Notes under the pieces: model-generated
Told to the model about the DNA's origin: nothing
Databases searched by the model: none
What the model saw: the letters and a program-made list of their open reading frames with translations, nothing else
Part shown: positions 5,543 to 54,783 of the stretch, in pieces
How the letters are laid out: each line of letters starts with the position of its first letter
How positions within the stretch are numbered: the stretch's first letter is position 1
Position numbers and translations under genes: made by a program
Virus record (IMG/VR): IMGVR_UViG_3300037427_004270
DNA: 64,000 nucleotides
Origin: a virus
Strand: one strand, 5' to 3'

Positions 5543-5605
5543 TATAAAGTCTCCTCAAGGAATCTCCTTTATTGTCACAAAAAAATAAAGGGCTTTTACA
5601 TGTAA

Positions 5606-5612
5606 TAAGTAG
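5606..5612 (-). promoter_or_regulatory. CTANTTA motif variant (CTACTTA) upstream of the sheath gene
   Basis: ACTACTTATTAC in the gap before the sheath gene; flanks resemble ACTATTTATTAC at 18942-18953. Confidence 0.45.
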
Positions 5613-13900: not shown

Positions 13901-14758
13901 TGAACCTAACCACTCTACAGCGGCAAAAATCCTCATAGGAGGAAGAAAAGTCTTATCAATGCTCTCGCCGTATAGGTTATGGTAGTTGCTGTGCTTGATG
14001 CTGACAGGAAAATATACAACCTGCTGGCCAATGACCCTTTCTAGGACTTCATCACCAACTTGCTTTGTTAAATCTCTCTCTTTTTTACCAGTGAACAGTG
14101 GTGGTGGAGGACTATCCTGAGTTGTATACTCGTTATGCTTCACCTGATCATCTTTGCAGATAGCTCCGTTAACATCTCCTGAGCTTTCAACTATATTTAT
14201 CTCGTTAACCGGGTCGTATGCATCAGCAATCAGCCTCGGGTCTTCCTCTTCTGATGCCACATAGTCCTGCTTTGGAAATGTGCCGTCCCTAGCTCTTACG
14301 CATTTCGCAGCTATTTCAATTTTTTCGTCTACTTGCCCGAACAATAGCCTTGGCTGTTGAAGTGTGACTACTTCGTAGTATTGATCTCCATAATAGACAT
14401 AATCCCCTTCGCGCACAAACAGGTTCTTGTCTTCGGTCAACCTTCTTTTTTGAAAATGTACTGTAATAGACGACTTTTTCTCTATTCCAAAAGAGTCTGT
14501 CGTTGTTTCTTCGCCGTTCCACTCTACATAAGCATCTATTTTAACGGGCGGCAGAAAGTTTTTATCTATGGCTTCCCCATAGAGATCATGAAAGTTAGTG
14601 TGCTTAACACTGATGGGATAATATACTAAAGCGGATTTAACAACTCTTTCAGAAATTTCATCTGAAACTTGTTTTGCTAAGTCTTTTTCTTTCTTTCCCG
14701 TAAAAAGCGGAGGGGGCGGAGCTTTCGGACGGTTCCAGACATTATCGTTATCTGACAT
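7916..14758 (-). CDS. 2280-aa fusion: two tandem head-closure (gp14-like) domains, an SAS/TAS-repeat fibre shaft and two tandem ~550-590-aa domains
   Basis: Duplicated PPPLFTGKKE...LYGE.IDK.FLPP...RLTED.NLFVREGDY...LFGQ domain; repeated SASAFYGDGSNLTG; duplicated KLSFGSS...DQRNG.NYA.V.H...GDFR...WTGY domain; follows the neck gene. Confidence 0.75.
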   Translation of the reverse strand: MSDNDNVWNRPKAPPPPLFTGKKEKDLAKQVSDEISERVVKSALVYYPISVKHTNFHDLYGEAIDKNFLPPVKIDAYVEWNGEETTTDSFGIEKKSSITVHFQKRRLTEDKNLFVREGDYVYYGDQYYEVVTLQQPRLLFGQVDEKIEIAAKCVRARDGTFPKQDYVASEEEDPRLIADAYDPVNEINIVESSGDVNGAICKDDQVKHNEYTTQDSPPPPLFTGKKERDLTKQVGDEVLERVIGQQVVYFPVSIKHSNYHNLYGESIDKTFLPPMRIFAAVEWLGSDTETTYLGLDKTSKISVKFHKKRLTEDQNLFVREGDYLLYGNILYEITILKSPRLLFGQVNNKYEIIAECIRARQGVFTLSKKKVPAGDEIDENSLTACENASFIQKVEGEKNTVKNLGSGEGAFAKKVGSELQFKSFKEGNNVTITSNANEITIASTTTLTGTIDNAHTASLAHTASLAHTASLAHTASYILGSNVTGAVALASTASYYAETDTLSTVAARGATTTATLSVGGISASANISASAFYGDGANITGVTAEWDGSHVGSASITGSLAVTANLSASGHISASAFVGDGSGITGVTAEWDGSHVGNATIQGSLSASLNISASAFYGSGANLTNITAGNIVGTVANATNAVNAQTASFATTAQLANSVSASNVVGTVASAFTASFITGSNVVGTVANAFTASFITGSKVFGTVANATNAINAQTASYVVTALTASYVLASNISGTVASAANATNAQTASFILTASYAKMAGLANSVSASNIDGTVASAFTASFVTGSNVVGPVALASTASYYVETDTLHTVVSRNPQTTGTLSVGGISASVNISASAFYGDGSNLTGVTAEWDGTHTGNATITGNVSGSAFYGDGSNLTGITASFATTAGLANSISASNVVGTVASAFTASYITGSNVAGAVALASTASYYAETDTLSTVVARGATTTGTLSVAGISASANISASAFYGDGSNLTGVTAEWDGSHTGNATITGNLSASVNISASAFYGDGSNLTGISTASTLDQVTDNGSVTTNNITIGNMISTSITGSLTKLRDGTAYLRAGSNISLVTGSSGQVTISAASGSAASGSGNIGTAEDGTYTDGLFTDFISTTPVGTAVDRFNEILKILAPSPAPDVSRINASTGAGVSSKLSFGSSNAISGYTNVSSIGSFSALNVTGTYESATSGDDFRRGTYNGASNIEGIVNFHVTADTYDNAVNNYPVDSFGNAEVGILELYVNGTLEHSINLTSSAIGSGNPGSGAGTHVNGDGSGFINVSVTASAEDRSQNAFSIFQHRTAKYRVHTADQRNGLNYAQVKHSGSWGSKTTNFVQWVNDNNSNALAASNARFANETGLGGKYLSGVQYFKSASANYIVEVSNAYRNVYTSQNISFTTTNCSISAQAFPELNFGAGEDETKVLKITGSATTSTQSLSGSIQSSVNVAHPLKSDLSNGGSASSTGILIYNPSGNSTALRERFKEETYRLFSGSYDSQSDVDSGTWNSQTHMTASGTHSDGLQLYSARLYSPLNTIQSGDFRDNSEGGPFGLAPAGNPNYSGESGTRTFFRYFRNSTGATKRDITLTIEGSGTTIVPAGTALNSGRIRAFIKIPGSTGFMDVAAAFTYDQTSAGSGAYVLAFDNSVDATNYVTFGTKGVGNGDDVVLKIEADTSWTGYVDDIVVAFGAGTGTAPTEAPALDDIDINDSGTDVKLSFGSSKGVTGYTNVSTNTGNSAVDLNGNFLDSGDIAGVFDGTTVIDGELNEDISANGTSYVANSFKNAATGSLKLEVNGAVVHTIDLASASVGSGNPGSGTDSELNANSSGFVSLSIYKPGLYSGNSLPDYTKIYRTGKYQVGAADQRNGWNYARVVHTGSGISQTITNYVEWVNDPDSNALSAAATNLTNFSGSVFYSLSGVRYFVDCSASFTYAASNVYKNVYYRSSDGISFPTTTNTTVSHIGTFGSGLASTGTTSGATKALPALATTANSQDQVLQITGTITFDPSASLVGAHATTAHTASVSSRVKHPLKSNLTTSTLSKHSFLVFSGSQSSDLNSTEHFDGEVYRLQSGSYATQNSVTNAGNAWSSTVSINDAGGNATYSNGMLIYNDKLMSPLTGGLSGDFRCANDGGALQAPTGNPNYSTLTAATREYYRYFRSNQVGDVSLATVTLRGDANLISKGGAFNTGSLGASKNFHLEVKIPGDSGWLDMARPASLSENIATDGSGGYNGGGADVDQTVDGSGTSYGINFRTATLEGTSGGNADYLLVRITAHKDWTGYLSRISFTYGS
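13331..13400. repeat. 18-nt tandem repeat (~4 copies) encoding AHTASL
   Basis: AGAAGCAGTATG(A/G)GCCAA units seen directly at 13331, 13349, 13367 and a partial unit at 13385. Confidence 0.9.
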
Positions 14759-16144: not shown

Positions 16145-17833
16145 TTAGCCCTGCATATCAGAGATAATAACCAAGCCGTACATGTCAGGACGTACCATTT
16201 TCTTAGCGTAACGAGTCATTACGCCTTTTCTTGGTACGAAGTCTTCAGGACCAAAAATGGTCGGTGTGACTTGCAATGGAACGTAAGGAGCATAAACATA
16301 TCCACTTTCGAGGAAGCTGCTACCTTTACGGCCAACTAATACAACGTTACGTGGGAAGTATGGGTCAACATAAACTTCCAACTTACCGCTCAAACTACCG
16401 ACGTTAACTGCACCAGTGGTACCTTTGTCGTCGTCATGAGTAACCTTAGCTTTGAAGCCAGCGGTGAATTCAAGCAAGTTAGCTGCTTCTGGGGATACAA
16501 CGATGAAGTTGGCTCCGCCGCGCAACGTTTTGCGGTGAATCTGTGCTGAAACGTCATTGATGGTTTCGAGAAGAGTCTCGTACCATTCGCTAACAGTACC
16601 AGTGAAGTCTGCACCGAGCAAGGATTCGTTCGCGCTAGTGCTGATTTGCAAACCAGTTTCGCGGTTCAAGAACTTACCTGGGCGACGTGACCAGTAATAG
16701 GTTGATGCGGTTGCACCGTTGATCAAGTCATTCAAGATTTCCTGATCGAGTTCAAGAGCAATGTGCTCGGAAAGAACGTTTGTTAATTCAACTTCAGCGT
16801 CTAAGTTGTGATAAGCGTTCAAGTCTTGTCCTAATTCAGGAGTCCACTTTGCTTTCAACTTCTTAGTAACTGCAGTAACAGCAATGCTATCAACGTTGAT
16901 GTTGATCTCAGGGATGTTACCATCGTTCTCTAAGCCCCATTCAGCTGCACCAACAACAGAACCGATAGCACGAGGGCCAGCGTTGAAGTTGTCAACCAAA
17001 GGATAGCTCAAAGTACCAGCAATGTTTGCTGCACCGATGTTTGCGCTCATACCAGAGAACATGATGTCAAGGTTGTTGCCACTAAGCGTAGTCAAACGAC
17101 GAACTTGGTTAGCACCAGACAAATGACCTGCAGTAGTAGGCGTAAACACGATTTGAGTCAAGTTTTCTAAGTTAATTTCATCTCTAAAGGATGTGATAGC
17201 GATTCTCAACTGCTGACACTTAGTAGTGCTAGCTGCAACCAAGTCAGGGTCATGACGAATAGCTTTCAATGAAACTTCGTTCATGCTGCCTGGAGCAACA
17301 GAAGCAGACAACTGAGTACCCGTTCTGATTGCGTTCAAAGACTGCGAACCAGTAGGTGAACTGTAAGAGTTGTTCAAGTTGTAGAAACCACCAGATGCTT
17401 CAGTAAGAGCAGCATTGGCAAGACCACCAGTAATTTGCTGGCCGAGGGTTCCGCCGCCATAAACTGATTTATCAGCAACACCACCACCACGAGTCTTGTC
17501 TAACTTGAAATCCAAGAAGAAGATAAGACCAGATGGAAGGCTCATAGGCTGAACACTTACCAGTTCATTTGCGATTAAGTTACCGAATACACGACGAACG
17601 ATAGGAAATGCAACGGATGCAAAACCTTCAACATCGGCACCAGCCATGGATGAAGCTTCACGGAGAAGTTCTTTTGCTTGGTTTTCGAGCAAGCGGCTCA
17701 TATAATTTTTTGATTGTGAGGAAGTAAGACCTTCGAGAAGACCAGTATTTTCCCACTTATTCAGTAATGCAGCGCCTTCACCAGAGAGGTCACGCTCTAC
17801 AATACCTTCAGTTAATTTTTCAATAACAGACAT
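16145..17833 (-). CDS. gp23: Major capsid protein (T4 gp23-like)
   Basis: LLNKWENTGLLEG, AFPIVRRVFGNLIANELVSVQPMSLPSGLIFFLD, TKKLKAKWTPELGQDLNAYH, GYVYAPYVPL, GVMTRYA. Confidence 0.97.
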   Translation of the reverse strand: MSVIEKLTEGIVERDLSGEGAALLNKWENTGLLEGLTSSQSKNYMSRLLENQAKELLREASSMAGADVEGFASVAFPIVRRVFGNLIANELVSVQPMSLPSGLIFFLDFKLDKTRGGGVADKSVYGGGTLGQQITGGLANAALTEASGGFYNLNNSYSSPTGSQSLNAIRTGTQLSASVAPGSMNEVSLKAIRHDPDLVAASTTKCQQLRIAITSFRDEINLENLTQIVFTPTTAGHLSGANQVRRLTTLSGNNLDIMFSGMSANIGAANIAGTLSYPLVDNFNAGPRAIGSVVGAAEWGLENDGNIPEININVDSIAVTAVTKKLKAKWTPELGQDLNAYHNLDAEVELTNVLSEHIALELDQEILNDLINGATASTYYWSRRPGKFLNRETGLQISTSANESLLGADFTGTVSEWYETLLETINDVSAQIHRKTLRGGANFIVVSPEAANLLEFTAGFKAKVTHDDDKGTTGAVNVGSLSGKLEVYVDPYFPRNVVLVGRKGSSFLESGYVYAPYVPLQVTPTIFGPEDFVPRKGVMTRYAKKMVRPDMYGLVIISDMQG

Positions 17834-18897: not shown

Positions 18898-18945
18898 GTT
18901 TTAAACTCCATTAATAATGAAAAGGGATTACTCCCCTACAAGTAA

Positions 18946-18952
18946 TAAATAG
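18946..18952 (-). promoter_or_regulatory. CTATTTA motif upstream of scaffold/MCP
   Basis: ACTATTTATTAC downstream of the 18986-19014 terminator and about 50 nt before the ATG. Confidence 0.55.
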
Positions 18953-18985
18953 TTGTTTATTGGTCAAAAGTCATTTTTCAGAAAT

Positions 18986-19014
18986 AAAAAAAGCCCGGCA
19001 CATTGGCCGGGCTT
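18986..19014 (-). terminator. Intrinsic terminator after the 2965-aa gene
   Basis: Stem AAGCCCGGC (18991-18999) / GCCGGGCTT (19006-19014) with a T7 tail on the minus strand. Confidence 0.85.
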
Positions 19015-19047: not shown

Positions 19048-22000
19048 TTATAAGTCTGATGCAAATGGGGATGGATACCATTCACCATTCTCACAGAAGT
19101 ACCATTTATTGACATTTCCAAATGTTTGTTGCGTAATCGCATCTGCACTTGCCCAGCTTGAGCCGGAGACAATATAGATCATCGAACCGTTGTATGCACC
19201 TGGAGCTGCTGCCATTGTGTCCAAAACATTAACATCAGAAGCGTTGTCCTGACGGAAGTGTGTAAGACTCAAAAGACCAGTAACCGTAGTAACATCAGTT
19301 CTAGCATTACCAAGAGCTGAGTCACCCTGGACAGTCAATGTGCTTATCGTTGAGCCACTTGCATAAATGTGTGATGCTGACAAAGGAGCTGAAGTAAAAC
19401 TTACATTTCCTGTTGCGCCACCCAAAGATGCACTTGTTGTGAGGCCGAACTGAAAGCGGTCTGCTGACTCGTCCCAGATAAACAATGCGTCAACTGCTGT
19501 GCCTCTCTTCATGACAAGGCCAGTATCGTTGACGTTGGTCGCGCCATTGTCTGTATCACCACTACCACTGTTCAGCATAATCAAGTTATCGTAGAACGTT
19601 GTATTGGATGATGAGACATAAGTAACAGAGCCCTGTACAGTCAAGTTTCCACCAACAGTCAAGCCAGTGTTCAAAGACAAGGAGTCATCTGAAGCATTGT
19701 GCGTGATAGTTGTTGGGGAACCAGCACCGAAGCTAAGAACTGCGCCGTCACTTAACAATTTAAGGTCGTCACCAATAACAGCGTCTAATGCAACAGACAA
19801 ACCGCCGTCGGTCTGCAAAGAGCCGTCAGTTGTTGAAGTTGCGTTAGTTGTATCATCAGTCTTTAATACGCCAGAGAAAGTACCAGTAGTACCTGCAACT
19901 GTTGTAAACGTACCTGCCGCTGCAGAAGCTGCACCGATAACAGTGCCGTCAATCGCACCAGAGTCAATGTCAACGTTAGTTGAATTGTAGTTGGCATGAT
20001 CAACGTTTGAGCCCAACGTTCCAAGATTGGAAGTCGTTGCAGTCAAGGTTGTGACAGTTGCCGCTGCAGCACTTGCTGCACCGATGGTAGTACCGTCGAT
20101 TGCGCCACCGTTGATGTCAACAGTAGTCAAAGTAGACGTGCCAGTTGCAGTGATCGCATCAATGTAACCGTGGTCAATATGAGCTTCGGCCCACTGCTTT
20201 GCAGATGTACCCAAGTCGCTTGTGCTATCCAAAATAGGAATCAAGTCACTATCAAACTGACCAGTTACAGTAACGCTGTCTGTGGTAGCGTTACCTAAGT
20301 CAACGTCACCAGTTGCAGACAATGTTGTTGCAGTCAAAGCTTGAACAGCAGTTGTACCAGCGGAGACACTTAGGCCACCTTTGGTCACTGCCAAAGCATT
20401 GTTTGCAGTCAACGTGCTCTCAACGTGCATCGTGCCGCCGACTGACGCATTGCCAGAACCAGAGACAGTGCCCATAACAGTTAAGTTATTACCCAGGCTT
20501 GTTGCACCAGCAATTTGCAGTGTGCTAGAACCAGAGATGGTTGTAAACTTTGCAGTTGTTGCAGAGTTTGCACCGATAGCAGTACCGTCGATAGCACCAC
20601 CGTTGATGTCAACAGTAGTCAAAGTAGACGTGCCAGTTGCAGTGATCGCATCAATGTAACCGTGGTCAATATGAGCTTCGGCCCACTGCTTTGCAGTTGT
20701 ACCTAAGTCTCTCGCACTGTCAGTTGATGGAATCAAATCACTATCAAATTGTCCTGTTGCGGTGATGGTGTCCGTGGTTGCGTTACCTAAGTCAACGTCA
20801 CCAGTTGCAGACAAGGTTGTTACAGTTGCTGCTGCTGCAGAGTTTGCACCAATAACAGCTCCATCAATAGCACCGGAGTCAATGTTGACGTTAGTCATTG
20901 CTTCATCAGAGAAGTTAACAGCACCAGCCTGCTCGTAAGCACCGAGCTTAGTAACAGTCAAAGTATTATTAACTTGATCAAAAGTAATACCACTATCGTA
21001 GTAAAGGTTTGCAGATGAAGCTGCAGAGGCAGAAACCAATGCGAACGTCAATGTATCACCCGCCTCAACGCCGTCAGTTTGAGCAACACTCGCACCTACG
21101 CCTGTCAAGTTGGAGCCGTCACCATGAAAGGTTTTGGCATGCATTGCGGAAGCAGACAGTGGAGCTGAGTCAAAAGCTAAGTTTCCAGTCTGAGTTCCTA
21201 ACGAGCCCGACTTTAATGTTGCAATTTGGAAACGGTCTGCTGACTCGTCCCAGAACATTGCTGCATCAGTTGCCGCGCCGCGCTTCATGATGAGGCCAAT
21301 ATCATTGATGTTGGTCGCACCATTATCTGCATCACTACTGCCACTGTTCAAGACAATCAAGCTGTCATTAAGAACAGTGTTGGAAGAAGACACATAAGTT
21401 ACAGAGCCTTGCACAGTTAAGCTTCCGCCAACAGTCAAGCCAGTGTTCAAAGACAAGGAGTCATCTGAAGCATTGTGCGTGATAGTTGTTGGGGAACCAG
21501 TACCGAAACTAAGAACTGCACCGTCACTTAACAACTTGAGGTCGTCACCAATAACAGCGTCTAGCGCAACAGACAAACCACCGTCGGTCTGCAAAGAGCC
21601 GTCAGTTGTTGAAGTTGCATTAGTTGTGTCGTCAGTCTTCAAGATACCAGAGAAAGTACCTGTAGTACCTGCAACTGTTGTAAACGTACCTGCTGCTGCA
21701 CTTGCTGCACCGATGATAGTACCGTCGATAGCGCCAGAGTCAATGTCAACGTTAGTTGAATTGTAGTTAGCGTGATCAACGTTTGAGCCCAACGTTCCAA
21801 GATTGGAAGTCGTTGCAGTCAAGGTTGTGACAGTTGCCGCTGCTGCAGAAGCTGCACCGATGGTAGTACCGTCGATAGCACCACCGTTGATGTCAACAGT
21901 AGTCAACGTGGACGTGCCAGTTGCTGTGATGTCATCAATGTAACCATGATCAACATGAGCTTCTGCCCATTGCTTGGCAGATGTACCCAAGTCTCTTGCA

Positions 22001-25000
22001 CTGTCGGTTGATGGGATCAAGTCGCTATCAAACTGACCAGTCACAGTAACTGTGTCTGTGGTAGCATTACCCAAGTCAACGTCACCAGTAGCAGACAACG
22101 TTGTTGCAGTCAAAGCTTGTACAGCAGTTGTGCCAGCAGAAACCGTTAAGCCTCCCTTGGTCACTGCCAAAGCGTTGTTTGCAGTCAATGTGCTTTCAAC
22201 ATGCATTGTGCCACCAACTGATGCATTGCCAGAACCAGAAACAGTTCCCTTGACAGTTAGGTTGTTACCTAAGCTAGTTGCACCAGCGATGCCTAGAGTA
22301 CCAGAACCAGAAAGGTTGGTACCAGTCAAAGCTGCGAATGTACCTGCTGCTGCAGAGTTTGCACCGATGATAGTGCCGTCGATAGCGCCAGAGTCAATGT
22401 CAACGTTAGTTGAATTGTAGTTAGCGTGATCAACGTTTGAGCCCAACGTTCCAAGATTGGAAGTCGTTGCAGTCAAGGTTGTGACAGTAGCTGCAGCAGC
22501 ACTTGCTGCACCGATGGTAGTACCGTCGATAGCACCGCCATTAATGTCAACAGTAGTCAACGTGGACGTGCCAGTTGCTGTGATGTCATCAATGTAACCA
22601 TGATCAACATGAGCTTCAGCAAACTGCAAAGCAGATGTACCCAAGTCTCTTGCACTGTCGGTTGATGGAACAATGTCGCTGTCAAAGCGGCCTGTTGCAG
22701 TGATCGTATCAGAGGTAGCGTTACCTAAGTCAACGTCACCAGTTGCAGACAAAGCTGCGACAGTAGTTGAACCAGCAGAGACAACCAAGTTGCCGAGAGT
22801 AACAGTCAAGTTACCTGCTTCAACCTCTACGTTGTCTTCAACAGTCATGGTTGATCCGAATGCTGCGCCACCTTGTACAGACAAAGTGCCAGAGCCGGAC
22901 ATGTTACCAGCAACATTAAGTGTGCCAGAGCCAGACATGTTGCCTTCAACAGACAAGTTATTACCCAAGCTTGTTGCACCTGCAATTTGTAATGTGCTAG
23001 AGCCAGAGATGGTTGTAAACTTCGCAGTTGTTGCAGAGTTCGCACCGATAGCAGTACCGTCGATAGCACCAGAGTCAATGTTAACATTGGTCATAGCTTC
23101 GTCGGAAAAGTTAACAGCACCAGCCTGCTCGTAAGCACCAAGCTTAGTTGTAGTCAAGGTGTTTGTATTATTGTTGTACAGAAGTTGTCCGTCAGTCAAA
23201 ATACTTGCACCAGAGCCTGCTGCGGTAGTACTACCAAGAAGGTAAACAGTCGCATCATTATCACCACCATCAGCGGTAGTAATTGTGTCTGCGGAGATAC
23301 CTGTCAAGTTAGAACCGTCACCAGTAAAGAACTGTGCATGTACATGGGAAGCAGACAGTGGAGCTGAGTCAAAGCTCAAGTTTCCAGTCTGAGTTCCTAA
23401 CGAGCCCGACTTTAATGTTGCAATTTGGAAACGGTCTGCTGACTCGTCCCAGAACATTGCTGCATCAGTTGCTGCTCCACGCTTCATGATAAGACCAACA
23501 TCGTTGATGTTAGTTGCGCCGTTATCTGAATCACTACTACCACTGTTCAAGACAATCAAGCTGTCATTGAGTACAGTGTTAGAAGAAGAAACATAAGTCA
23601 CAGAACCTTGTACGGTTAAGCTTCCACCAACAGTCAAACCAGTGTTCAGAGATAATGAATCATCTGAAGCGTTGTGTGTAATAGTTGTTGGAGAACCAGT
23701 ACCGAAACTAAGAACTGCACCGTCACTTAACAACTTGAGGTCATTCCCGAGAACTGCATCTTTAACAACAGATAGGCCACCATCGGTCTGCAAAGAACCG
23801 TCGGTAGTAGTAGTTGCTTCAGTTGTGTCATCAGTCTTTAAGACGCCAGAGTAAGTACCTGTCGTACCCGCAACTGTTGTAAACGTACCTGCCGCTGCAG
23901 AGGCTGCACCGATAACAGTGCCGTCAATCGCACCAGAGTCAATGTCAACGTTAGTTGAATTGTAGTTGGCATGATCAACGTTTGAGCCCAACGTTCCAAG
24001 ATTGGAAGTCGTTGCAGTCAAGGTTGTGACAGTTGCCGCTGCTGCAGAAGCTGCACCGATAACAGTGCCGTCAATCGCACCAGAGTCAATGTCAACGTTA
24101 GTTGAATTGTAGTTGGCATGATCAACGTTTGAACCCAACGTTCCAAGGTTGGAAGTCGTTGCAGTCAATGTTGTGACAGTTGCCGCTGCAGCACTTGCTG
24201 CACCGATGGTAGTACCATCAATCGCGCCGCCATTAATGTCAACAGTGGTCAACGTGGACGTGCCAGTTGCAGTGATTGCATCAATGTAACCATGATCAAC
24301 GTGAGCTTCGGCCCACTGCTTTGCAGATGTACCCAAGTCGCTTGTGCTATCTAAAATAGGAATCAAGTCACTATCAAACTGACCAGTTACAGTAACGCTG
24401 TCTGTGGTAGCATTACCTAAGTCAACATCGCCCGTAGCAGACAAAGCTGCGACAGTAGTTGAACCAGCAGAGACAACCAAGTTGCCGAGAGTAACTGTTA
24501 AGTTACCTGCTTCAACTTCTACATTATCTTCAACAGTCAGGGTTGAACCCAAAGCTGCAGCACCTTGTACAGACAAAGTACCAGAACCAGACATGTTGCC
24601 AGCAATATTCATGTTGCCAGAACCAGAGATAGCCCCTTCGACTGACAAGTTGTTACCCAAGCTTGTTGCACCTGCAATTTGCAATGTGCTAGAGCCAGAG
24701 ATGGTTGTAAACTTTGCAGTTGTTGCAGAGTTTGCACCGATGGCAGTACCATCAATCGCGCCGCCATTGATGTCAACAGTAGTCAACGTGGATGTACCAG
24801 TTGCAGTGATTGCATCAATATAGCCATGATCAATGTGAGCTTCGGCCCACTGCTTTGCAGTTGTACCCAAGTCTCTTGCACTGTCAGTTGACGGAATCAA
24901 GTCACTATCGAACTGGCCAGTTACAGTAACTGTATCAGAAGTAGCATTACCCAAGTCAACGTCACCAGTTGCAGACAAAGCTGCGACAGTGGTTGAGCCA

Positions 25001-27945
25001 GCAGAGACGACCAAGTTACCGAGAGTAACAGTCAAGTTACCCGCTTCAACTTCTACATTATCTTCAACAGTTAAGGTAGAACCCAAAGCTGCGCCGCCTT
25101 GTACAGACAAGGTGCCTGAACCAGACATGTTACCAGCTACGTTAAGAGTTCCTGATCCGGAAATATTTCCTTCAACAGAAAGGTTGTTACCCAAGCTTGT
25201 TGCACCTGCAATCTGCAATGTACTAGAGCCAGAGATGGTTGTAAACTTTGCAGTTGTTGCAGAGTTCGCACCGATGGCGGTACCATCAATAGCGCCGGAG
25301 TCAATGTTGACGTTGGTCATTGCTTCATCAGAGAAGTCAACCGCGCCAGCTTGCTCATAAGCACCAAGCTTAGTTGTAGTCAAGGTATTCGTATTGTTGT
25401 TATATACGAGCTGCCCGTCAGTCAAGATACTTGCACCAGCGCCTGCTGCAGTGGTACTACCAAGAAGGTAAACAGTCGCATCGTTATCGCCACCGTCAGC
25501 GGTAGTAATTGTGTCTGCGGAAATACCTGTCAAGCTAGAACCGTCGCCATGGAATGTCTGAGCATGCATTTGAGAAGCAGACAATGGAGCTGAGTCAAAA
25601 GCTAAGTTTCCAGTCTGAGTTCCTAACGAGCCCGACTTTAATGTTGCAATTTGGAAACGGTCTGCTGACTCGTCCCAGAACATTGCTGCATCAGTTGCCG
25701 CGCCGCGCTTCATGATGAGGCCAATATCATTGATGTTGGTCGCACCATTATCTGCGTCACTACTGCCACTATTCAAGACAATCAAGCTGTCATTAAGAAC
25801 AGTGTTAGAAGAAGACACATAAGTTACAGAACCTTGTACGGTCAAGCTTCCGCCAACAGTCAAGCCAGTGTTCAGAGACAAAGAGTCATCTGAAGCATTA
25901 TGCGTGATAGTTGTTGGTGAACCTGTACCGAAGCTAAGAACTGCGCCGTCACTTAACAACTTGAGGTCGTCACCGATAACAGCATCTAATGCAACAGATA
26001 AACCACCGTCGGTCTGCAAAGAGCCGTCAGTTGTTGAGGTTGCGTTAGTTGTGTCATCAGTCTTCAAGATGCCAGAGAAAGTACCAGTAGTACCTGCAAC
26101 AGTTGTGAATGTACCTGCTGCTGCACTTGCTGCACCAATGGTAGTACCATCAATCGCACCAGAGTCAATGTCAACGTTAGTTGAATTGTAGTTAGCGTGA
26201 TCAACGTTTGAACCCAACGTTCCAAGATTGGAAGTCGTTGCAGTCAAGGTTGTGACAGTTGCCGCTGCAGCACTTGCTGCACCGATGGTAGTACCGTCGA
26301 TAGCACCGCCATTAATGTCAACAGTGGTCAGCGTGGACGTGCCAGTTGCTGTGATGTCATCAATGTAACCATGATCAACATGAGCTTCAGCAAACTGCAA
26401 AGCAGATGTACCCAAGTCTCTTGCACTATCAGTTGATGGAACAATGTCGCTGTCAAAGCGGCCTGTTGCAGTGATCGTATCAGAGGTAGCGTTACCTAAG
26501 TCAACGTCACCAGTTGCAGACAATGTTGTTGCAGTCAAAGCTTGAACAGCAGTTGTACCAGCGGAGACAGTCAAGCCACCTTTGGTAACAGCCATAGCAT
26601 TGTTCGCAGTCAACGTGCTCTCAACGTGCATCGTGCCGCCGACTGACGCATTGCCAGAACCAGAGACAGTGCCCATAACAGTTAAGTTACTACCCAAGCT
26701 TGTTGCACCAGCAATTTGCAGTGTGCTAGAGCCAGAGATGGTTGTAAACTTTGCAGTTGTTGCAGAGTTTGCACCGATAGCAGTACCATCAATTGCACCA
26801 CCGTTGATGTCAACAGTAGTCAATGTGGACGTGCCAGTTGCAGTGATTGCATCAATGTAACCGTGATCAACATGAGCTTCGGCCCACTGCTTTGCAGATG
26901 TACCTAAGTCTCTTGCACTATCAGTTGATGGCACCAAGTCACTATCAAATTGGCCTGTTGCCGTGATAGTGTCTGTGGTAGCATTACCCAAGTCAACGTC
27001 ACCAGTTGCAGACAATGTTGTCACAGTTGCCGCAGCAGGAGTTGTCCCACCAAGGACTGCATCAACAGTACCACCGTTAATATCGGCAGTAGTTGCAACC
27101 AAGCTAGCTGCAGTAGTTACACCAGCAGCACTAACGCTAAGCTTATCAGTACCGTCTGTTTGCTCAACATTAAACAATTGAGCTGTTTGGCTACCAACGC
27201 CTTTAACATTCAAAGTGATCTCGTCAGTAGTGTCACCGGTGATTGTGGCACCAGCAGCAACGACCAGTTGATCATTTGCAGTCAAAGTTGTGAATGTACC
27301 AGCAGCAGGAGTTGCTGCACCAACAGTTGTACCATCAATTGCGCCGCCGTTGATGTCAACAGTAGTCAAGGTAGACGTGCCAGTCGCAGTGATGTTATCA
27401 ATGTGACCAGTGTCAATATGAGCTTCGGCAAACTGTAAAGCAGATGTACCTAAGTCTCTTGCACTATCGGTTGATGGAACAATGTCACTGTCAAAGCGAC
27501 CTGTTGCGGTGATGGTGTCAGAGGTAGCATTACCTAAGTCAACATCGCCTGTAGCAGAAATATTCACAGTTCTAAACGTAGAACTTGCTGGGTTATATGA
27601 AATAGAACCCGAATGAATATACTGAGTTTCAGAGCCGCCAGAGGCAGAGACAAACGTTAAATGTAAATAATTGTCTGTGTCTGCTGGGCTAGTAGAAGCA
27701 TTTTCCACTGAGCCTCCAACGCCTGATAAATTAGAACCGTTACCATAAAAATATGATGCCGATATCTTTCCGCTAGCAGACAATGATAAGCCTGTAGCGT
27801 TGTTGTCTCCGCCTGCAGCGGAAGACGAAATAGTTAATGAGCCACTAAAATAGTGAGCACCATTATCCAGAGAACGAAATTTGGTGTCTTTCCAATTCGC
27901 TCCAGAGCCGGATATAACGGCTATACCTCTTGGATCAATAGGCAT
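19048..27945 (-). CDS. Giant repetitive fibre/decoration protein (2965 aa)
   Basis: T/G/A/S/D-rich; built from shuffled modules (9x GDVDLGNAT..., 4x LKTDDTT...FWDESADRFQ); ends in the shared WYFCENGEWYPSPF module. Confidence 0.85.
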   Translation of the reverse strand: MPIDPRGIAVISGSGANWKDTKFRSLDNGAHYFSGSLTISSSAAGGDNNATGLSLSASGKISASYFYGNGSNLSGVGGSVENASTSPADTDNYLHLTFVSASGGSETQYIHSGSISYNPASSTFRTVNISATGDVDLGNATSDTITATGRFDSDIVPSTDSARDLGTSALQFAEAHIDTGHIDNITATGTSTLTTVDINGGAIDGTTVGAATPAAGTFTTLTANDQLVVAAGATITGDTTDEITLNVKGVGSQTAQLFNVEQTDGTDKLSVSAAGVTTAASLVATTADINGGTVDAVLGGTTPAAATVTTLSATGDVDLGNATTDTITATGQFDSDLVPSTDSARDLGTSAKQWAEAHVDHGYIDAITATGTSTLTTVDINGGAIDGTAIGANSATTAKFTTISGSSTLQIAGATSLGSNLTVMGTVSGSGNASVGGTMHVESTLTANNAMAVTKGGLTVSAGTTAVQALTATTLSATGDVDLGNATSDTITATGRFDSDIVPSTDSARDLGTSALQFAEAHVDHGYIDDITATGTSTLTTVDINGGAIDGTTIGAASAAAATVTTLTATTSNLGTLGSNVDHANYNSTNVDIDSGAIDGTTIGAASAAAGTFTTVAGTTGTFSGILKTDDTTNATSTTDGSLQTDGGLSVALDAVIGDDLKLLSDGAVLSFGTGSPTTITHNASDDSLSLNTGLTVGGSLTVQGSVTYVSSSNTVLNDSLIVLNSGSSDADNGATNINDIGLIMKRGAATDAAMFWDESADRFQIATLKSGSLGTQTGNLAFDSAPLSASQMHAQTFHGDGSSLTGISADTITTADGGDNDATVYLLGSTTAAGAGASILTDGQLVYNNNTNTLTTTKLGAYEQAGAVDFSDEAMTNVNIDSGAIDGTAIGANSATTAKFTTISGSSTLQIAGATSLGNNLSVEGNISGSGTLNVAGNMSGSGTLSVQGGAALGSTLTVEDNVEVEAGNLTVTLGNLVVSAGSTTVAALSATGDVDLGNATSDTVTVTGQFDSDLIPSTDSARDLGTTAKQWAEAHIDHGYIDAITATGTSTLTTVDINGGAIDGTAIGANSATTAKFTTISGSSTLQIAGATSLGNNLSVEGAISGSGNMNIAGNMSGSGTLSVQGAAALGSTLTVEDNVEVEAGNLTVTLGNLVVSAGSTTVAALSATGDVDLGNATTDSVTVTGQFDSDLIPILDSTSDLGTSAKQWAEAHVDHGYIDAITATGTSTLTTVDINGGAIDGTTIGAASAAAATVTTLTATTSNLGTLGSNVDHANYNSTNVDIDSGAIDGTVIGAASAAAATVTTLTATTSNLGTLGSNVDHANYNSTNVDIDSGAIDGTVIGAASAAAGTFTTVAGTTGTYSGVLKTDDTTEATTTTDGSLQTDGGLSVVKDAVLGNDLKLLSDGAVLSFGTGSPTTITHNASDDSLSLNTGLTVGGSLTVQGSVTYVSSSNTVLNDSLIVLNSGSSDSDNGATNINDVGLIMKRGAATDAAMFWDESADRFQIATLKSGSLGTQTGNLSFDSAPLSASHVHAQFFTGDGSNLTGISADTITTADGGDNDATVYLLGSTTAAGSGASILTDGQLLYNNNTNTLTTTKLGAYEQAGAVNFSDEAMTNVNIDSGAIDGTAIGANSATTAKFTTISGSSTLQIAGATSLGNNLSVEGNMSGSGTLNVAGNMSGSGTLSVQGGAAFGSTMTVEDNVEVEAGNLTVTLGNLVVSAGSTTVAALSATGDVDLGNATSDTITATGRFDSDIVPSTDSARDLGTSALQFAEAHVDHGYIDDITATGTSTLTTVDINGGAIDGTTIGAASAAAATVTTLTATTSNLGTLGSNVDHANYNSTNVDIDSGAIDGTIIGANSAAAGTFAALTGTNLSGSGTLGIAGATSLGNNLTVKGTVSGSGNASVGGTMHVESTLTANNALAVTKGGLTVSAGTTAVQALTATTLSATGDVDLGNATTDTVTVTGQFDSDLIPSTDSARDLGTSAKQWAEAHVDHGYIDDITATGTSTLTTVDINGGAIDGTTIGAASAAAATVTTLTATTSNLGTLGSNVDHANYNSTNVDIDSGAIDGTIIGAASAAAGTFTTVAGTTGTFSGILKTDDTTNATSTTDGSLQTDGGLSVALDAVIGDDLKLLSDGAVLSFGTGSPTTITHNASDDSLSLNTGLTVGGSLTVQGSVTYVSSSNTVLNDSLIVLNSGSSDADNGATNINDIGLIMKRGAATDAAMFWDESADRFQIATLKSGSLGTQTGNLAFDSAPLSASAMHAKTFHGDGSNLTGVGASVAQTDGVEAGDTLTFALVSASAASSANLYYDSGITFDQVNNTLTVTKLGAYEQAGAVNFSDEAMTNVNIDSGAIDGAVIGANSAAAATVTTLSATGDVDLGNATTDTITATGQFDSDLIPSTDSARDLGTTAKQWAEAHIDHGYIDAITATGTSTLTTVDINGGAIDGTAIGANSATTAKFTTISGSSTLQIAGATSLGNNLTVMGTVSGSGNASVGGTMHVESTLTANNALAVTKGGLSVSAGTTAVQALTATTLSATGDVDLGNATTDSVTVTGQFDSDLIPILDSTSDLGTSAKQWAEAHIDHGYIDAITATGTSTLTTVDINGGAIDGTTIGAASAAAATVTTLTATTSNLGTLGSNVDHANYNSTNVDIDSGAIDGTVIGAASAAAGTFTTVAGTTGTFSGVLKTDDTTNATSTTDGSLQTDGGLSVALDAVIGDDLKLLSDGAVLSFGAGSPTTITHNASDDSLSLNTGLTVGGNLTVQGSVTYVSSSNTTFYDNLIMLNSGSGDTDNGATNVNDTGLVMKRGTAVDALFIWDESADRFQFGLTTSASLGGATGNVSFTSAPLSASHIYASGSTISTLTVQGDSALGNARTDVTTVTGLLSLTHFRQDNASDVNVLDTMAAAPGAYNGSMIYIVSGSSWASADAITQQTFGNVNKWYFCENGEWYPSPFASDL
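19400..27560. repeat. Dispersed near-identical intragenic repeat modules within the giant fibre gene
   Basis: Long nucleotide blocks such as AAGTCAACGTCACCAGT(T/A)GCAGACAA and TGCAAAGA(G/A)CCGTC recur many times; differences are mostly at synonymous positions. Confidence 0.9.
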
Positions 27946-27958
27946 ATTTTTTCCCTCC

Positions 27959-27982
27959 TTCTTCGTCGAATATCACGAAGAA
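27959..27982 (-). promoter_or_regulatory. 5' UTR hairpin abutting the SD of the 2965-aa gene
   Basis: mRNA UUCUUCGU-GAUAUUCG-ACGAAGAA directly followed by GGAGGG-AAAAAAU-AUG. Confidence 0.65.
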
Positions 27983-28015
27983 ATAAATTAAAAGTTTACT
28001 AATGTTTCCCATCTA

Positions 28016-28453
28016 TTAACTTAGATGAAAGAACATGTCAGGTACCCACGCACTATTGCGCGAAAAATACCATTTGTGGCCTTGCGAGAAAGCCTGAGCT
28101 GCGTCATTGCTGACTGCGACAGAACCTCCATTGGCAATTGCACCTTTCGTAAGGCCAGTTGAATTTAGATATATAACGTGTCCATTGTAATCTTCTGGCG
28201 CTGCAGCCAGAGTATTTAAAATACCAATATCATTTTCAGAACCTGAAGCATATACTGGAATTCTAAAGACGCCATGAACCTTCGTCACATCGTTAACGTT
28301 GTTTGTCTTTCTACCTAACATCGTACTACCAGAGATGGCCAATGCTTTATTGGACCCTCCCGCAGAAATGATAGCCGAACCATCGTCCAAAAACCTATGG
28401 ACATTGGTCGGTGATGAACCGGTAGTGACTTGCAACCCTCTTCTTCCTACCAT
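28016..28453 (-). CDS. 145-aa protein made only of the N- and C-terminal modules shared with the 370-aa and 2965-aa proteins
   Basis: LQVTTGS..DDGS N-terminus and ILNTLAAAPEDYNG...KWYFSRNSAW C-terminus; strong GGAGGG RBS. Confidence 0.8.
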   Translation of the reverse strand: MVGRRGLQVTTGSSPTNVHRFLDDGSAIISAGGSNKALAISGSTMLGRKTNNVNDVTKVHGVFRIPVYASGSENDIGILNTLAAAPEDYNGHVIYLNSTGLTKGAIANGGSVAVSNDAAQAFSQGHKWYFSRNSAWVPDMFFHLS

Positions 28454-28467
28454 ATTATTTTCCCTCC

Positions 28468-28491
28468 TTCTTTGTCAAATATCACAAAGAA
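28468..28491 (-). promoter_or_regulatory. 5' UTR hairpin abutting the SD of the 145-aa gene (covarying copy of 27959-27982)
   Basis: mRNA UUCUUUGU-GAUAUUUG-ACAAAGAA followed by GGAGGG-AAAAUAAU-AUG. Confidence 0.65.
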
Positions 28492-28745
28492 ATTAAAAGT
28501 TTCTTTTTTTACGAATGAGGCGTATATTAAAGGTGAGTTTCCGCAACAAGTATATAAAATTGGCAACTCTTACCTCCCGAAAAAGGTTTCTTAATAAAAC
28601 GCCCTTCTTCACAAGCATCCCTTCTCAAACGTGGGGCTTGATATTAGTATTTAGTGAGAAAAGTGTGGTTTATTGCCTGTTTGCTTCAAGTTCTCTGAAA
28701 AAAGTTCCTGCACGTTTTTTATCAAATATTTTATGCAGATCCAAT

Positions 28746-28769
28746 AAAAAACCCGGCGCGGGGCCGGGT
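28746..28769 (-). terminator. Intrinsic terminator after the four-paralog cluster
   Basis: Minus strand ACCCGGC-CCCGC-GCCGGGT followed by TTTTT. Confidence 0.8.
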
Positions 28770-28797
28770 CTTGAAAGTATGTTGTGCGAGCGTGTTA

Positions 28798-29880
28798 TTA
28801 GCTTACATCTTTTGTGAAAAACTCAAAGCCATCAATTAGCGCATCGTGACACAAATAGTCGTCATCATGGGTTATAGCATGAGCCGTATAATAGCCACAG
28901 TCTTGAGATTTCAAGGTTGAGTTTGAACTATCCCATTGTCTATAGTAAGAATCAGTAGTCGCTATTGAAATGGTTGTCTGCTTTGTCCATGTTTCGTTAC
29001 TGAGAGTTTCTCCAATAGGTGCGGTATAGATCTCAACCTTATCGGCACTAGCTTGTGGTGTCACATCCATCCGAACATGATACCATGTGTTGAACGAGCC
29101 TGAAAATATAGTCTCATGAAGACTGTTGGTACCCGAACTAATGCCGTGAGAAATATCATTTGTTTTATGAGCGTGGAATTTCAAGCGAGGAACCCTTGCA
29201 CCGACTTTGCCAGCTTCACTGGTTCCGCCCTGAGCGCCGTCGCTGTCGTCTCTCAAGGTTGAGAGCGTCAAGCAATATCCCGTCATTCTTGGGTTGTAAT
29301 CGCCACCAGAGCCATAGAAAGCATCTACAGCGTCTTCGGTAGCGTCATTAAAATAAGACGCACTTAGAGAGCCTGTTCCTGAACTTACATAGTCTCCCTG
29401 CTGGGCGGTGCCTGGGCCGATGCCCTTGACGAACAGGCCAATTTCTGAGCCTTGATTTCTCTCGGAGTTGGCGACTATTGAGGAGTTGTCGTTGCCCAGT
29501 CTCAAGAAAGCTCGAATACTGTAGGCAATTGTAGTACCTTCCGCAGGAGTTGCGTCAACTGGAAAGTCGCTTCCTGAGTCTGAGCCCGTTGTTATAAACG
29601 CCGCCATAATGCATGCGTTGTGATAGCTATTGTTGGAATGAATGCTGGCCTGGCCATACATATATCCAGTGCAATAATCTCCCGCAGAAGCTGGTGCTGT
29701 GCCGGACAAGAAGGAGTGTGGGACGATAGAGCCAAAAGCTGCTTCGCCACCGCTGGTAGCTGCCCATGGGCCACCATTGCCGTAGGCCAAGAGGGACATG
29801 AAACGTTCCCCCCCTTCGAACTCGCCGGAATTGCCGCCGTACATGCCGGCATATCTAAAGTTTGAACGTGAAATTCCCAT
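28798..29880 (-). CDS. Putative beta-sandwich (lectin/ConA-like) virion protein, family A copy 2
   Basis: Highly similar to 31018-32106; SFNTWYHVRMDVTP..DKVEIYTAP core. Confidence 0.7.
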   Translation of the reverse strand: MGISRSNFRYAGMYGGNSGEFEGGERFMSLLAYGNGGPWAATSGGEAAFGSIVPHSFLSGTAPASAGDYCTGYMYGQASIHSNNSYHNACIMAAFITTGSDSGSDFPVDATPAEGTTIAYSIRAFLRLGNDNSSIVANSERNQGSEIGLFVKGIGPGTAQQGDYVSSGTGSLSASYFNDATEDAVDAFYGSGGDYNPRMTGYCLTLSTLRDDSDGAQGGTSEAGKVGARVPRLKFHAHKTNDISHGISSGTNSLHETIFSGSFNTWYHVRMDVTPQASADKVEIYTAPIGETLSNETWTKQTTISIATTDSYYRQWDSSNSTLKSQDCGYYTAHAITHDDDYLCHDALIDGFEFFTKDVS

Positions 29881-29895
29881 TTTATTTTTCTCCTA

Positions 29896-30996
29896 TTAGC
29901 TTGATATATTTTTTGAATACACAGTTAGTGCATCTAAGTATGCGTCGTGGTTTCTGGACCGGGTGCTAAGGGTTGAGCCATTTTGATCTCTCCACGCCTG
30001 CACACAATAACCCAAACCCCTGTGGTTTTGGGCATGCTGACGAGTGACGTAATGACAAGTTCCAGCAAAACGATATTGAGTTGCTCTTTTTGTCCATGTT
30101 TCCGAACCTATCGTGTCGGTTGCGGGTGCTGTGTAAATTTCAATTTTGTCTGTTCCTGGTAAGGGCGTAATGTCCATCCTTATGCGATACCACGCATTGA
30201 ATGCGTATGAGCCTTGGCACTTGTGAACTCTTGGTCGTTGAAACGTGTTCCCAGCGGCGGCTTCGTTCGCATGAGGGCCAGTACTAATGAAAAGAAGTCT
30301 TACCACGCCAACATTCCCCCTGTTGGTATCTTTAACGCTTGAGCCATCACCATCGGAGTCAATATCGTCGTTGCCCCAAGAGTAATGCTTCATACTAGAA
30401 AGCCAGAGAGTGTACCCGTTTATTAAGGTGCCGTAAGTATCCGTCTTGGAGTACACTGCATATCCATAATCATCACCATCGGCATCGGTGGTGTATCTAG
30501 CTGTGGTGGATGGCGTTCTAGCTCCAAAGAACAGACCCACTGCAGTGCCGCTTGACGTATATTGACTCACTGATGCTGTGTAGAGACAGCCCAATCTGAC
30601 TGTGGCTCTCATAGAGACAGCAGTTGCTTGGCTGCGCTTTCCTGTTGAGTTTGCAAAGCTTGCTGCTGCGCTCCAAGCTGAACCACTGTTTGGGTCTAGT
30701 CTTGGCCCCAAGGATCTAGTTCCCAAGAAACCCATGCCATACCAACCTCTATTGTAGTTGTTCACTGAGTAATTGTATTGGCTGAAGATCCACCCTCTTG
30801 CATAATCTCCGCAAGTGGTTATTGCGCCAGATAACGTGGAATGGGGAACTGACATTCCCTCTGCAGCATATCCGCCGTTAGTACCACTTTCGCTGCCATT
30901 GCCGCGAGCCATGTTGTGGGCAGCCATTCTCACGTTGCCGTCGGTGGCGTCGTTGAGGGTCGTATACCCTAGAAAATTAAAATCCTGTTTTGCCAT
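29896..30996 (-). CDS. Putative beta-sandwich virion protein, family B copy 2
   Basis: Highly similar to 32122-33195; FNAWYRIRMDITP..DKIEIYTAP core. Confidence 0.7.
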   Translation of the reverse strand: MAKQDFNFLGYTTLNDATDGNVRMAAHNMARGNGSESGTNGGYAAEGMSVPHSTLSGAITTCGDYARGWIFSQYNYSVNNYNRGWYGMGFLGTRSLGPRLDPNSGSAWSAAASFANSTGKRSQATAVSMRATVRLGCLYTASVSQYTSSGTAVGLFFGARTPSTTARYTTDADGDDYGYAVYSKTDTYGTLINGYTLWLSSMKHYSWGNDDIDSDGDGSSVKDTNRGNVGVVRLLFISTGPHANEAAAGNTFQRPRVHKCQGSYAFNAWYRIRMDITPLPGTDKIEIYTAPATDTIGSETWTKRATQYRFAGTCHYVTRQHAQNHRGLGYCVQAWRDQNGSTLSTRSRNHDAYLDALTVYSKNISS

Positions 30997-34333: not shown

Positions 34334-34389
34334 GCTTCCATTCCTCCAGGGCGCGTTTGAACGAGAACCTACCTCGCATAGTTACAAGT

Positions 34390-34396
34390 TAAATAG
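34390..34396 (-). promoter_or_regulatory. CTATTTA motif upstream of the 370-aa gene
   Basis: ACTATTTAAC in the 93-nt gap, about 57 nt before the ATG. Confidence 0.5.
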
Positions 34397-37838: not shown

Positions 37839-38048
37839 TTACCTCGCAAGTTCTTTCTTTTTCTTCTTCTGAGCATCTCTAATGGCTTTTTGCTTTGCTA
37901 ATCTCTTAACATCAGAAGGTTTTTTATAAAATCTTTTTTGTTTCACTGCATCAACAATCTTTGACTTTTTTGTCTTTTTCATGAACCTCTTAATAAGAGC
38001 CTCTACGCTCTCTCCTTTACGCAGCTTTACACTAAAGTTTTGAGACAT
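37839..38048 (-). CDS. rpsU: Phage-encoded ribosomal protein bS21
   Basis: 69 aa, basic; V..RKGESVEALIKRF.KK...........RFYKKPS.VKR matches the bS21 pattern (V...E..E.ALRRFK...........Y.KPS..R). Confidence 0.85.
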   Translation of the reverse strand: MSQNFSVKLRKGESVEALIKRFMKKTKKSKIVDAVKQKRFYKKPSDVKRLAKQKAIRDAQKKKKKELAR

Positions 38049-53859: not shown

Positions 53860-54783
53860 TTATATCTTTTTAATTAATCTTACTGGGATATCCAAAGAAT
53901 ACCCTGTTGTTGCGCCATGAACTCGCAAAATAGTATCAATGTATCTGCAACTGGTTGGGCCTGAACCCACGTTTACTGTTCCACCTAACTCTGTAAAGAG
54001 ATAGTTGCTACTTTCCAAGTCCTGCGTTGCTTTGAGCTTTGTCATTATCGTTGTTCCGCGAGGACCAGCAATCACATGGCCACTTTCGGTGTTTGTGTCC
54101 TTGGCGATAATCTGATTCACCATAGACTTGTGAGAGTTTTCAGTTACCAAGTAGTTGGCGATCTTATCGTCATCAACGAAGTTTGGCTCCAATAGCACAT
54201 TGTCAGGCTGGCGAACAGACATAAGTCTATTGTCCATCTCTAGGCTATACTGAGTCTCTCTCAAGTCTCCATCAATATCGTTGGTGTAAGAAATTTCTGT
54301 AGTGTCCAAACCCTGATCGAGTCTAATGACTCCTTCGCCTGGTGTGGATGTTCCGTTCAAGAGTCCAGTTGTTCCAGTGACTGCTTTTTGGGTAGCGTCG
54401 TCAACTGACAATAAATAATGGTTTGTTGCAGTCATTGCAGTTCCATTTTTTTGAAGTGGGGTTTGGCCACTAGGACTTCCTTCTTGAAGCTTGATGATAG
54501 GAAGGTACTTTAAGGTGTTCCTAGCAATACTTACAAGCTTGCTTTTCATGCTGGAAGCGTTGTTGGTAAAAGCCTCTAGAACTGGTGTTCTCAGCACGTT
54601 CAAATCATAGTAAGCACTGCCACTTGAGTGCGAACCATTGTAGTTCTCGTAGTTTATCTCGTCATCGCCGAGAGCGAACTTGGCAATCTTAAAGGAGCCG
54701 TCTCCCTTTGCCAGTCTGTATCTGCCAGTGTCGGTGAGCACCGCATCTAAAATAATATCACCCGAATTGTCTAAAAAGCCCAT
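53860..54783 (-). CDS. Putative tail/baseplate structural protein
   Basis: N-terminal DAVLTDTGRYRLAKG...KFALGDDEINY resembles the tail-collar fibre N-terminus; upstream CTATTTA and GGAGG. Confidence 0.6.
   Translation of the reverse strand: MGFLDNSGDIILDAVLTDTGRYRLAKGDGSFKIAKFALGDDEINYENYNGSHSSGSAYYDLNVLRTPVLEAFTNNASSMKSKLVSIARNTLKYLPIIKLQEGSPSGQTPLQKNGTAMTATNHYLLSVDDATQKAVTGTTGLLNGTSTPGEGVIRLDQGLDTTEISYTNDIDGDLRETQYSLEMDNRLMSVRQPDNVLLEPNFVDDDKIANYLVTENSHKSMVNQIIAKDTNTESGHVIAGPRGTTIMTKLKATQDLESSNYLFTELGGTVNVGSGPTSCRYIDTILRVHGATTGYSLDIPVRLIKKI

Follow-up and report, generated by a model that had tools for sequence, protein, structure and literature searches.

T4-type phages carry mobile regulatory cassettes known as PeSL and PmSL (Arbiol et al. 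2010, PMC2839356; Comeau et al. 2014, PMC4122927). The subject of this study is a leader element found twice in a 64-kb stretch of DNA from an uncultured marine T4-like phage (IMG/VR record IMGVR_UViG_3300037427_004270, hereafter the window), where a stem-loop lies directly against the Shine-Dalgarno (SD) sequence of two neighbouring fibre-like genes. It resembles PeSL in several respects: both belong to T4-like phages, both consist of a short repeated intergenic AT-rich tract followed by stem-loop, SD and ATG, and both are copied or recombined among gene leaders with sharp boundaries, as direct repeats that flank a small open reading frame (ORF). Other traits set them apart. A strong sigma-70-like early or Mot-box middle promoter is the defining trait of PeSL, whereas none is recognisable in either cassette here. 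The PeSL stem-loop is situated in or upstream of the promoter and is a terminator or attenuator, whereas the present one is AU-rich, touches the SD and is not followed by a U run. PeSL also exists in dozens of copies, in hyperplastic regions and before ORFans, whereas the window contains two copies, in front of late virion genes. PeSL is the nearest named system and, with 5′ stabiliser hairpins, the closest analogue; the element would work more like a 5′ stabiliser hairpin joined to a leader with a strong ribosome-binding site (RBS).

The ompA-type 5′ hairpins and the processed leader of T4 gene 32 are 5′ stem-loops that stabilise mRNA. They share with our locus a stable local hairpin upstream of a long SD, with the RBS left unoccluded. 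The expected effect of such an arrangement is more, and longer-lived, mRNA with unimpaired initiation; in a synthetic-library study, designs with a stem-loop upstream of a 6-8-nt SD gave more transcript and a higher protein yield (PMC12743556). Classical stabilisers have to sit within a few nt of the 5′ end, whereas here one of the copies (A) is intercistronic. We propose, with a probability of about 0.45, that the element is a cis-acting RNA leader module that sets the same strong start for both cistrons and protects their mRNA. This reading fits best because of the SD-flush anatomy, the unrelated hairpins present family-wide and the ordinary accessibility of the SD.

Two copies of a leader cassette

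All genes of the region are encoded on the minus strand. A leader of about 55 bases is shared by the 145-aa gene and the 2965-aa gene, and in both it displays the same order: AAACUUUUAAUU, a stem UUCUU(C/U)GU / AC(G/A)AAGAA enclosing an 8-nt loop GAUAUU(C/U)G, GGAGGG, a 7-8-nt A-rich spacer and AUG.

27946..27997 (-), cassette A in full, from motif to spacer, preceding the 2965-aa gene
27997..27986 (-), cassette A motif AAACTTTTAATT
27983..27975 paired with 27966..27958 (-), cassette A 9-bp stem
27982..27975 (-), cassette A 5′ arm TTCTTCGT
27974..27967 (-), cassette A 8-nt loop GATATTCG (RNA GAUAUUCG)
27966..27959 (-), cassette A 3′ arm ACGAAGAA
27958..27953 (-), cassette A SD GGAGGG, followed by the spacer AAAAAAU
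27945..27943 (-), ATG of the 2965-aa gene
28454..28502 (-), cassette B in full, from motif to spacer, preceding the 145-aa gene
28502..28491 (-), cassette B motif AAACUUUUAAUU
28492..28484 paired with 28475..28467 (-), cassette B 9-bp stem
28491..28484 (-), cassette B 5′ arm TTCTTTGT
28483..28476 (-), cassette B 8-nt loop GATATTTG (RNA GAUAUUUG)
28475..28468 (-), cassette B 3′ arm ACAAAGAA
28467..28462 (-), cassette B SD GGAGGG, followed by the spacer AAAAUAAU
28453..28451 (-), ATG of the 145-aa gene

The duplicated sense-strand hairpin flush with the SD had been noticed from the sequence alone (the original prediction), and it is confirmed here: a degenerate 30-nt pattern that spans stem, loop and SD is found twice in the window and not once in 100 shuffles, and the upstream 12-mer occurs in exact form in the window only at cassettes A and B. 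Once aligned, the copies share 48 identical positions and differ by three substitutions, a 1-nt indel in the spacer and one 4-nt indel (ATTT). The last had been taken for a 3-nt difference (UAU). The motif of copy B overlaps the first U of the stem. The flanks cannot be aligned (60 nt on each side), which gives the cassettes sharp boundaries. All pairs of the stem are kept in both copies (9/9), one of them being changed on both sides from C-G to U-A, the compensatory swap that had been predicted. The two sides of this pair make up two of the three substitutions and the third is a loop change; in a neutral simulation with three random substitutions, a double compensatory change without any broken pair has P ~0.007. 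The inner GA/UC pair beyond a bulged G, part of the same prediction, is not recovered: folding does not predict it in copy A and gives a different single pair in copy B.

Logan contigs from four independent marine runs contain both cassettes, each with its own unique flanks and with 0 differences, a comparison that rests on assembled contigs. The duplication is thus no assembly artefact, since it is identical in all four, and the SD-abutting leader element is confirmed as real. Every contig piece over the leaders is identical in these runs, without any microdiversity, and no A/B deletion joint was found among their contigs. Four marine metagenome studies supply contig pieces that match 27700..28800 at 100% identity; the same phage strain is therefore widespread. 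In one marine run, a diverged relative (similar to locus L001 below) co-occurs with it.

The two paralogous virion genes that have the element in common, as had been proposed, are arranged head to tail with 70 nt between their ORFs.

28016..28453 (-), 145-aa gene, first cistron, made up of the two terminal modules (N and C) of the fibre-like family
19048..27945 (-), second cistron, giant fibre-like gene of 2965 aa, rich in repeats and akin to the 145-aa protein at its N- and C-termini
28750..28765 (-), intrinsic terminator of the 360-aa gene upstream, bounding the two-gene unit on that side
18985..19014 (-), intrinsic terminator beyond the end of the giant gene, with an 8-bp GC-rich stem (19014..18991) and a U run, bounding the unit on its downstream side

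Because these intrinsic terminators bracket them, we consider the 145-aa and giant genes as one two-cistron unit. About 250 nt of non-coding DNA separate the upstream terminator from cassette B.

Relatives and turnover of the leader

The 145-aa protein has nine homologues in public data (54-85% identity), the closest of which, and the likeliest to share the hairpin, are P0002, P0003 and P0007 on ENA contigs (73-85%). Leader DNA of relatives, here designated as L-numbered loci, was taken from JGI metagenome contigs. Viral contigs contained neither the exact cassette pattern (0 matches) nor relatives of the 145-aa protein (0); searched with N-terminal alignments of the family, they yielded a duplicate of L007 along with a spurious repeat match (L014) and nothing else, and with the N-terminus of L009 only an internal repeat (L015). 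Among GenBank phages there was no near match to the locus and no tblastn match to the 145-aa protein, and the cassette gave chance partial matches only (E of at least 1).

Orthologues of the two genes stand in the same order as in the window at three loci, L001, L002 and L003. The opening 50 nt of the giant gene are ~95% identical among the window, L001 and L003, and the segment GGAGGG-AA(A/U)AAAAU-AUG is conserved. The tract preceding the SD exists in three states: the hairpin of the window, an unrelated one in L001 (UUCGGU-CUUU-ACCGAA) and none in L003. The last two states differ by a 16-nt indel composed of a loop and an inverted copy of the flanking ATTCGG, which reads as the signature of template switching or slippage.

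L001:3380-3411 compared with L003:285-307, indel making or removing the hairpin, between TTCGG and TTTGG

The two leaders of L001 are dissimilar to each other and possess two different hairpins, and those of L002 are likewise dissimilar. Because of this dissimilarity, the duplication that links the 145-aa and giant genes is old, and the near-identity of the window leaders is recent and no sign of ancient conservation. In the window lineage, a tract of ~37 nt bounded by the older anchors AAAC and GGAGGG was recently copied from leader to leader, and both cistrons now have the same translation-initiation region.

Hairpins unrelated to that of the window are present in L001, L002 and L007-L012. 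Two other hairpin lineages show one double compensatory change each, from U-A to C-G (L008 compared with L011) and from A-U to G-C (L005 compared with L007), and several pairs in these stems are G-U combinations that exist on the sense strand alone, which favours RNA over a DNA palindrome. Covariation in homologous leaders, the check named with the original prediction, is thus seen as one double change in each of three hairpin lineages, and this evidence is thin. In three distant relatives (L005:3940-4003, L007:3920-4003 and L010:3923-4006), the upstream ORF, longer than 550 aa, continues in frame into the fibre-family ORF. This stop-free read covers a 10-bp hairpin, the SD and the AUG, and the same hairpin is non-coding in L006; the arrangement would result either from loss of a stop codon or from fusion into a giant ORF that has an internal start site.

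Such rapid turnover could also be understood at the DNA level. The cassette would then be a PeSL-like patch of recombination or conversion, or a palindrome born from template switching, with little or no function as RNA and acting at most as a weak transcriptional attenuator between the cistrons. The recent copying with sharp boundaries and short anchors agrees with this idea, as do the inverted ATTCGG copy of the 16-nt indel, the loss of any hairpin in L003 and the recombination known for T4-type PeSL cassettes, which unite AT-rich tract, stem-loop, SD and ATG (PMC2839356, PMC4122927). Hairpins are moreover a general feature of this phage's spacers: 7/14 distinct perfect 8-bp hairpins fall in the intergenic 2.1% of the window, including clear terminators (977..953 and 19014..18991). 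On the other hand, the two copies have no sigma-70-type promoter in common, the hairpin is no intrinsic terminator as no U run follows it, only two copies exist in 64 kb and the four runs yielded no A/B deletion joint. Six unrelated hairpins at the same place (next section), together with the G-U pairs restricted to the sense strand, point to selection on an RNA fold. We find a purely DNA-level or mutational origin unlikely, although it is the main rival of the structural module.

The same comparisons bear on a protein-bound operator of the MS2 or gp43 type, the first explanation offered by the original prediction. Hairpin and SD would be bound by a protein of the phage, be it the shared fibre module or some other factor, which would co-regulate both cistrons. 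The anatomy is indeed that of the T4 and RB69 gene 43 operator, a large-loop hairpin directly 5′ of or overlapping the RBS (PMC3014915), an arrangement found in both leaders. Identical cassettes on two paralogous genes would co-regulate them, and lineage-specific hairpins could reflect co-evolution with a lineage-specific binder. The gp43 operator is, however, a single copy placed on the gene of its own RNA-binding product, and its loop is kept between T4 and RB69 (PMC3014915), whereas here the products are fibre-like and neither loop nor upper stem is conserved among related phages: loops and stems vary even among close relatives, L001 has two different hairpins on its two leaders and L003 lacks any. 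No third copy exists in the window. The 145-aa protein matches no Pfam family, and its low-confidence AlphaFold2 model (predicted local distance difference test score of 54) has no PDB fold match, RNA-binding-like or other. A dedicated binder thus appears distinctly improbable.

A hairpin against the SD in the gene family

If the sequence of the hairpin turns over, is its position retained? We compared 15 family leaders, representing about nine independent lineages and including distant giant proteins that share the N-terminal module only, with 50 other leaders from the window and the loci, most of which have no non-coding room for a hairpin. A hairpin was counted as SD-abutting when it reached -3 kcal/mol or stronger and ended within 3 nt of the SD. 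This was the case for 11/15 family leaders and 5/50 others; counted by lineage, the difference remains (6/9 versus 5/50, Fisher p = 7e-4). Similarly, the minimum free energy (MFE) of the 32 nt ending at the first G of the SD has a median of -6.9 kcal/mol in the family and -1.4 kcal/mol in the 50 controls (Mann-Whitney p = 1e-4). Six unrelated hairpin types end at most 3 nt from the SD in family leaders. As unrelated hairpins recur at this one spot, the requirement appears to be ‘a hairpin here’ rather than one given sequence.

Folding and accessibility of the SD

In ViennaRNA both leaders fold into a 9-bp helix that ends in a U-G pair with the first G of the SD, so that the extension of the stem into the SD by U-G pairs, as anticipated, is real in silico. 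Centroid energies are -10.0 (A) and -8.5 (B) kcal/mol. The window contains 15 perfect 8-bp hairpins, compared with 9.2 +/- 3.4 in shuffled sequence; since this is about chance frequency, the hairpin alone constitutes no evidence. What exceeds chance is its SD-flush placement, its duplication with sharp boundaries and the compensatory pair.

In the MFE structures of both copies, the U-rich stretch that precedes the stem (CUUUU or UUU) is paired with GAGGG or GAG of the SD. This recalls fourU thermometers of the agsA type, in which a U run can pair with SD purines via U-G and U-A pairs. According to the second explanation put forward by the original prediction, the leader would be an SD-sequestering switch or a fourU-like thermometer: CUUUU/UUU would pair with GAGGG, the helix would extend over the SD and would melt with temperature. 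In keeping with this, the SD core of leader A is predicted to be unpaired with a probability that rises from ~0.06 at 4 °C to ~0.5 at 37 °C. The cost of opening the SD is nevertheless the same in the family as in the 50 control leaders, at 37 °C (1.78 versus 1.88 kcal/mol) as at 15 °C (3.11 versus 2.72 kcal/mol; p > 0.5 in both cases). The SD is hence no more paired at low temperature than in ordinary leaders, any U-rich leader of AT-rich DNA behaving alike in silico. Unlike in fourU elements, the main helix stands beside the SD and not over it: the SD is not hidden by the hairpin. Moreover, the 4-nt indel shifts the register of U-tract pairing between the copies, relatives lack a comparable U tract and copy B forms competing structures with its purine-rich coding start. 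A thermal or sequestering switch is therefore very unlikely.

In T4 e, 49 and I-TevI, a promoter is placed within a hairpin. If this held here, read-through transcripts would fold the hairpin, whereas transcripts from a late promoter that overlaps the 5′ arm would begin within the hairpin and lack it. The 5′ arm with the U tract (TTTATTTCTTCG) does resemble the motif TTWATWACTTGT of four late spacers, with 3 mismatches. Three mismatches in 12 are nevertheless at chance level (at most 2 mismatches already give 31 matches versus 28 expected), and as the SD is not covered, removal of the hairpin would unmask nothing. We give this arrangement hardly any credence.

No sigma-70-type promoter is common to both cassettes, and no Mot-box promoter is recognisable in A or B. 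A consensus match, TTGACA-18-TATGGT, occurs in copy B only, where it runs into the ATG so that the start would fall inside the gene; copy A reads TCGACG at this place. As to termination, the AU-rich stem is followed by GGAGGGAAAA and not by a U run, and the sole call of a terminator scan around the leaders is the one at 28765..28750. No Rfam family reached its gathering score in the window, and within 27000..30000 the only match with E < 1 was a chance snoRNA match elsewhere. The sole candidate pseudoknot, between the loop AUAUU and AAUAU at the start codon, was rejected, for it comprises only 5 A-U pairs and has no consistent counterpart in relatives.

The leader as a proposed structural module

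In the structural leader module that we favour, an A/U-rich tract would be followed by the 9-bp hairpin, whose helix takes in the initial G of an extended, 7-8-nt SD (AAGGAGGG), and then by a 7-8-nt A-rich spacer and AUG. The module is placed before both cistrons of a late unit encoding a 145-aa mini-fibre and the 2965-aa giant fibre. It would act by shape and not by sequence, as a stably folded local element that borders the ribosome-binding site on its 5′ side. The message would be shielded from 5′-end-dependent decay, possibly following cleavage in the adjoining upstream A/U-rich tract, and a defined, strong and equal start-site context would be fixed for the two genes.

A further hint comes from a promoter-like motif.

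5609..5598, 18949..18938, 28557..28546 and 34395..34384 (all -), promoter-like motif T(A/T)TTTATTAC(T/A)TGT

The motif is found in 4/9 long non-coding spacers, upstream of the sheath gene, the scaffold gene, the 145-aa/giant unit and a 370-aa fibre-family gene, and a stable hairpin lies 0-6 nt downstream of it in three of the four (sheath, scaffold and 370-aa gene). Its total number at no more than 2 mismatches is at chance (31 versus 28 expected), only its placement being striking. This suggests that the late mRNAs of this phage habitually carry 5′ hairpins. Another candidate late promoter, TAATATAC, was discarded: one copy is upstream of the terminator that follows the giant gene, and near matches are everywhere.

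Several observations weigh against such a module. The folding energies of the leaders are unremarkable in comparison with dinucleotide shuffles (z = -1.2 and -2.6). When the family is compared with the six non-family genes of the window that have a non-coding spacer of at least 35 nt, the excess of SD-abutting hairpins is not significant (6/9 versus 2/6, p = 0.23). The hairpin is absent from the close relative L003 and is dispensable at least there. Formal covariation tests and shuffle controls are powerless at 2-4 sequences per lineage. As T4 quasipalindrome work has taught, mutation by template switching can make double changes in a palindrome without RNA selection. Finally, a start at the 28557..28546 motif would put hairpin B ~45 nt inside the 5′ untranslated region, in which case 5′ protection would come only after processing.

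If the structural module is right, this locus would be a compact natural case of a phage matching the start strength of two cistrons by means of a copied structured tract of ~37 nt, one of these cistrons being a 9-kb ORF that requires a long-lived, well-loaded mRNA. It would also illustrate that selection can keep ‘a hairpin against the SD’ while its sequence turns over, and would extend the PeSL concept of mobile cassettes in T4-like phages to a variant that lacks a promoter and serves late genes. No new mechanism is implied unless a tie to the phage ribosomal protein bS21 or to a specific binder is shown.

Phage context and bS21

The window derives from a distant T4-like phage, on the evidence of the first two of the genes listed here and of the capsid matches given below them.

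16145..17833, Gp23 major capsid protein
2669..5542, tail sheath
37839..38048 (-), 69-aa ribosomal protein bS21 (PF01165, E = 4e-11)

The closest capsid matches, below 46% identity, come from uncultured huge phages, Flavobacterium ‘immuto’ phages and Rhodothermus RM378. No tRNAs were found, and a search of genome contigs with bS21 for the host returned one distant, uninformative match.

The bS21 gene belongs to the head module, ~10 kb upstream of the cassettes, where the prohead-protease region and the fibre/lectin block flank it, a context described for other bS21 phages as well (PMC9723584); GGAG-type SDs nevertheless precede nearly all genes of this phage. Phage bS21 has been proposed to select phage transcripts (PMC9723584). 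One may imagine that ribosomes carrying phage bS21 prefer the cassette of hairpin and maximal SD, the fold docking on the 30S platform at bS21 late in infection. Were this true, the cassette would supply the missing mRNA-side determinant of transcript selection by bS21 (PMC9723584). We regard this possibility as extremely faint.

The 344-nt spacer containing leader B also holds a 41-aa basic ORF (28493..28618, -), whose TAA falls inside the AAACTTTTAATT motif of the leader; with a poor SD and no conservation in L001, it is probably spurious. Elsewhere in the window, a 2280-aa giant gene (7916..14758, -) and a 307-aa gene (53860..54783, -) are preceded by hairpins that end 0-2 nt before their SDs, with energies of -7.6 and -7.0 kcal/mol respectively and sequences unrelated to the cassette.

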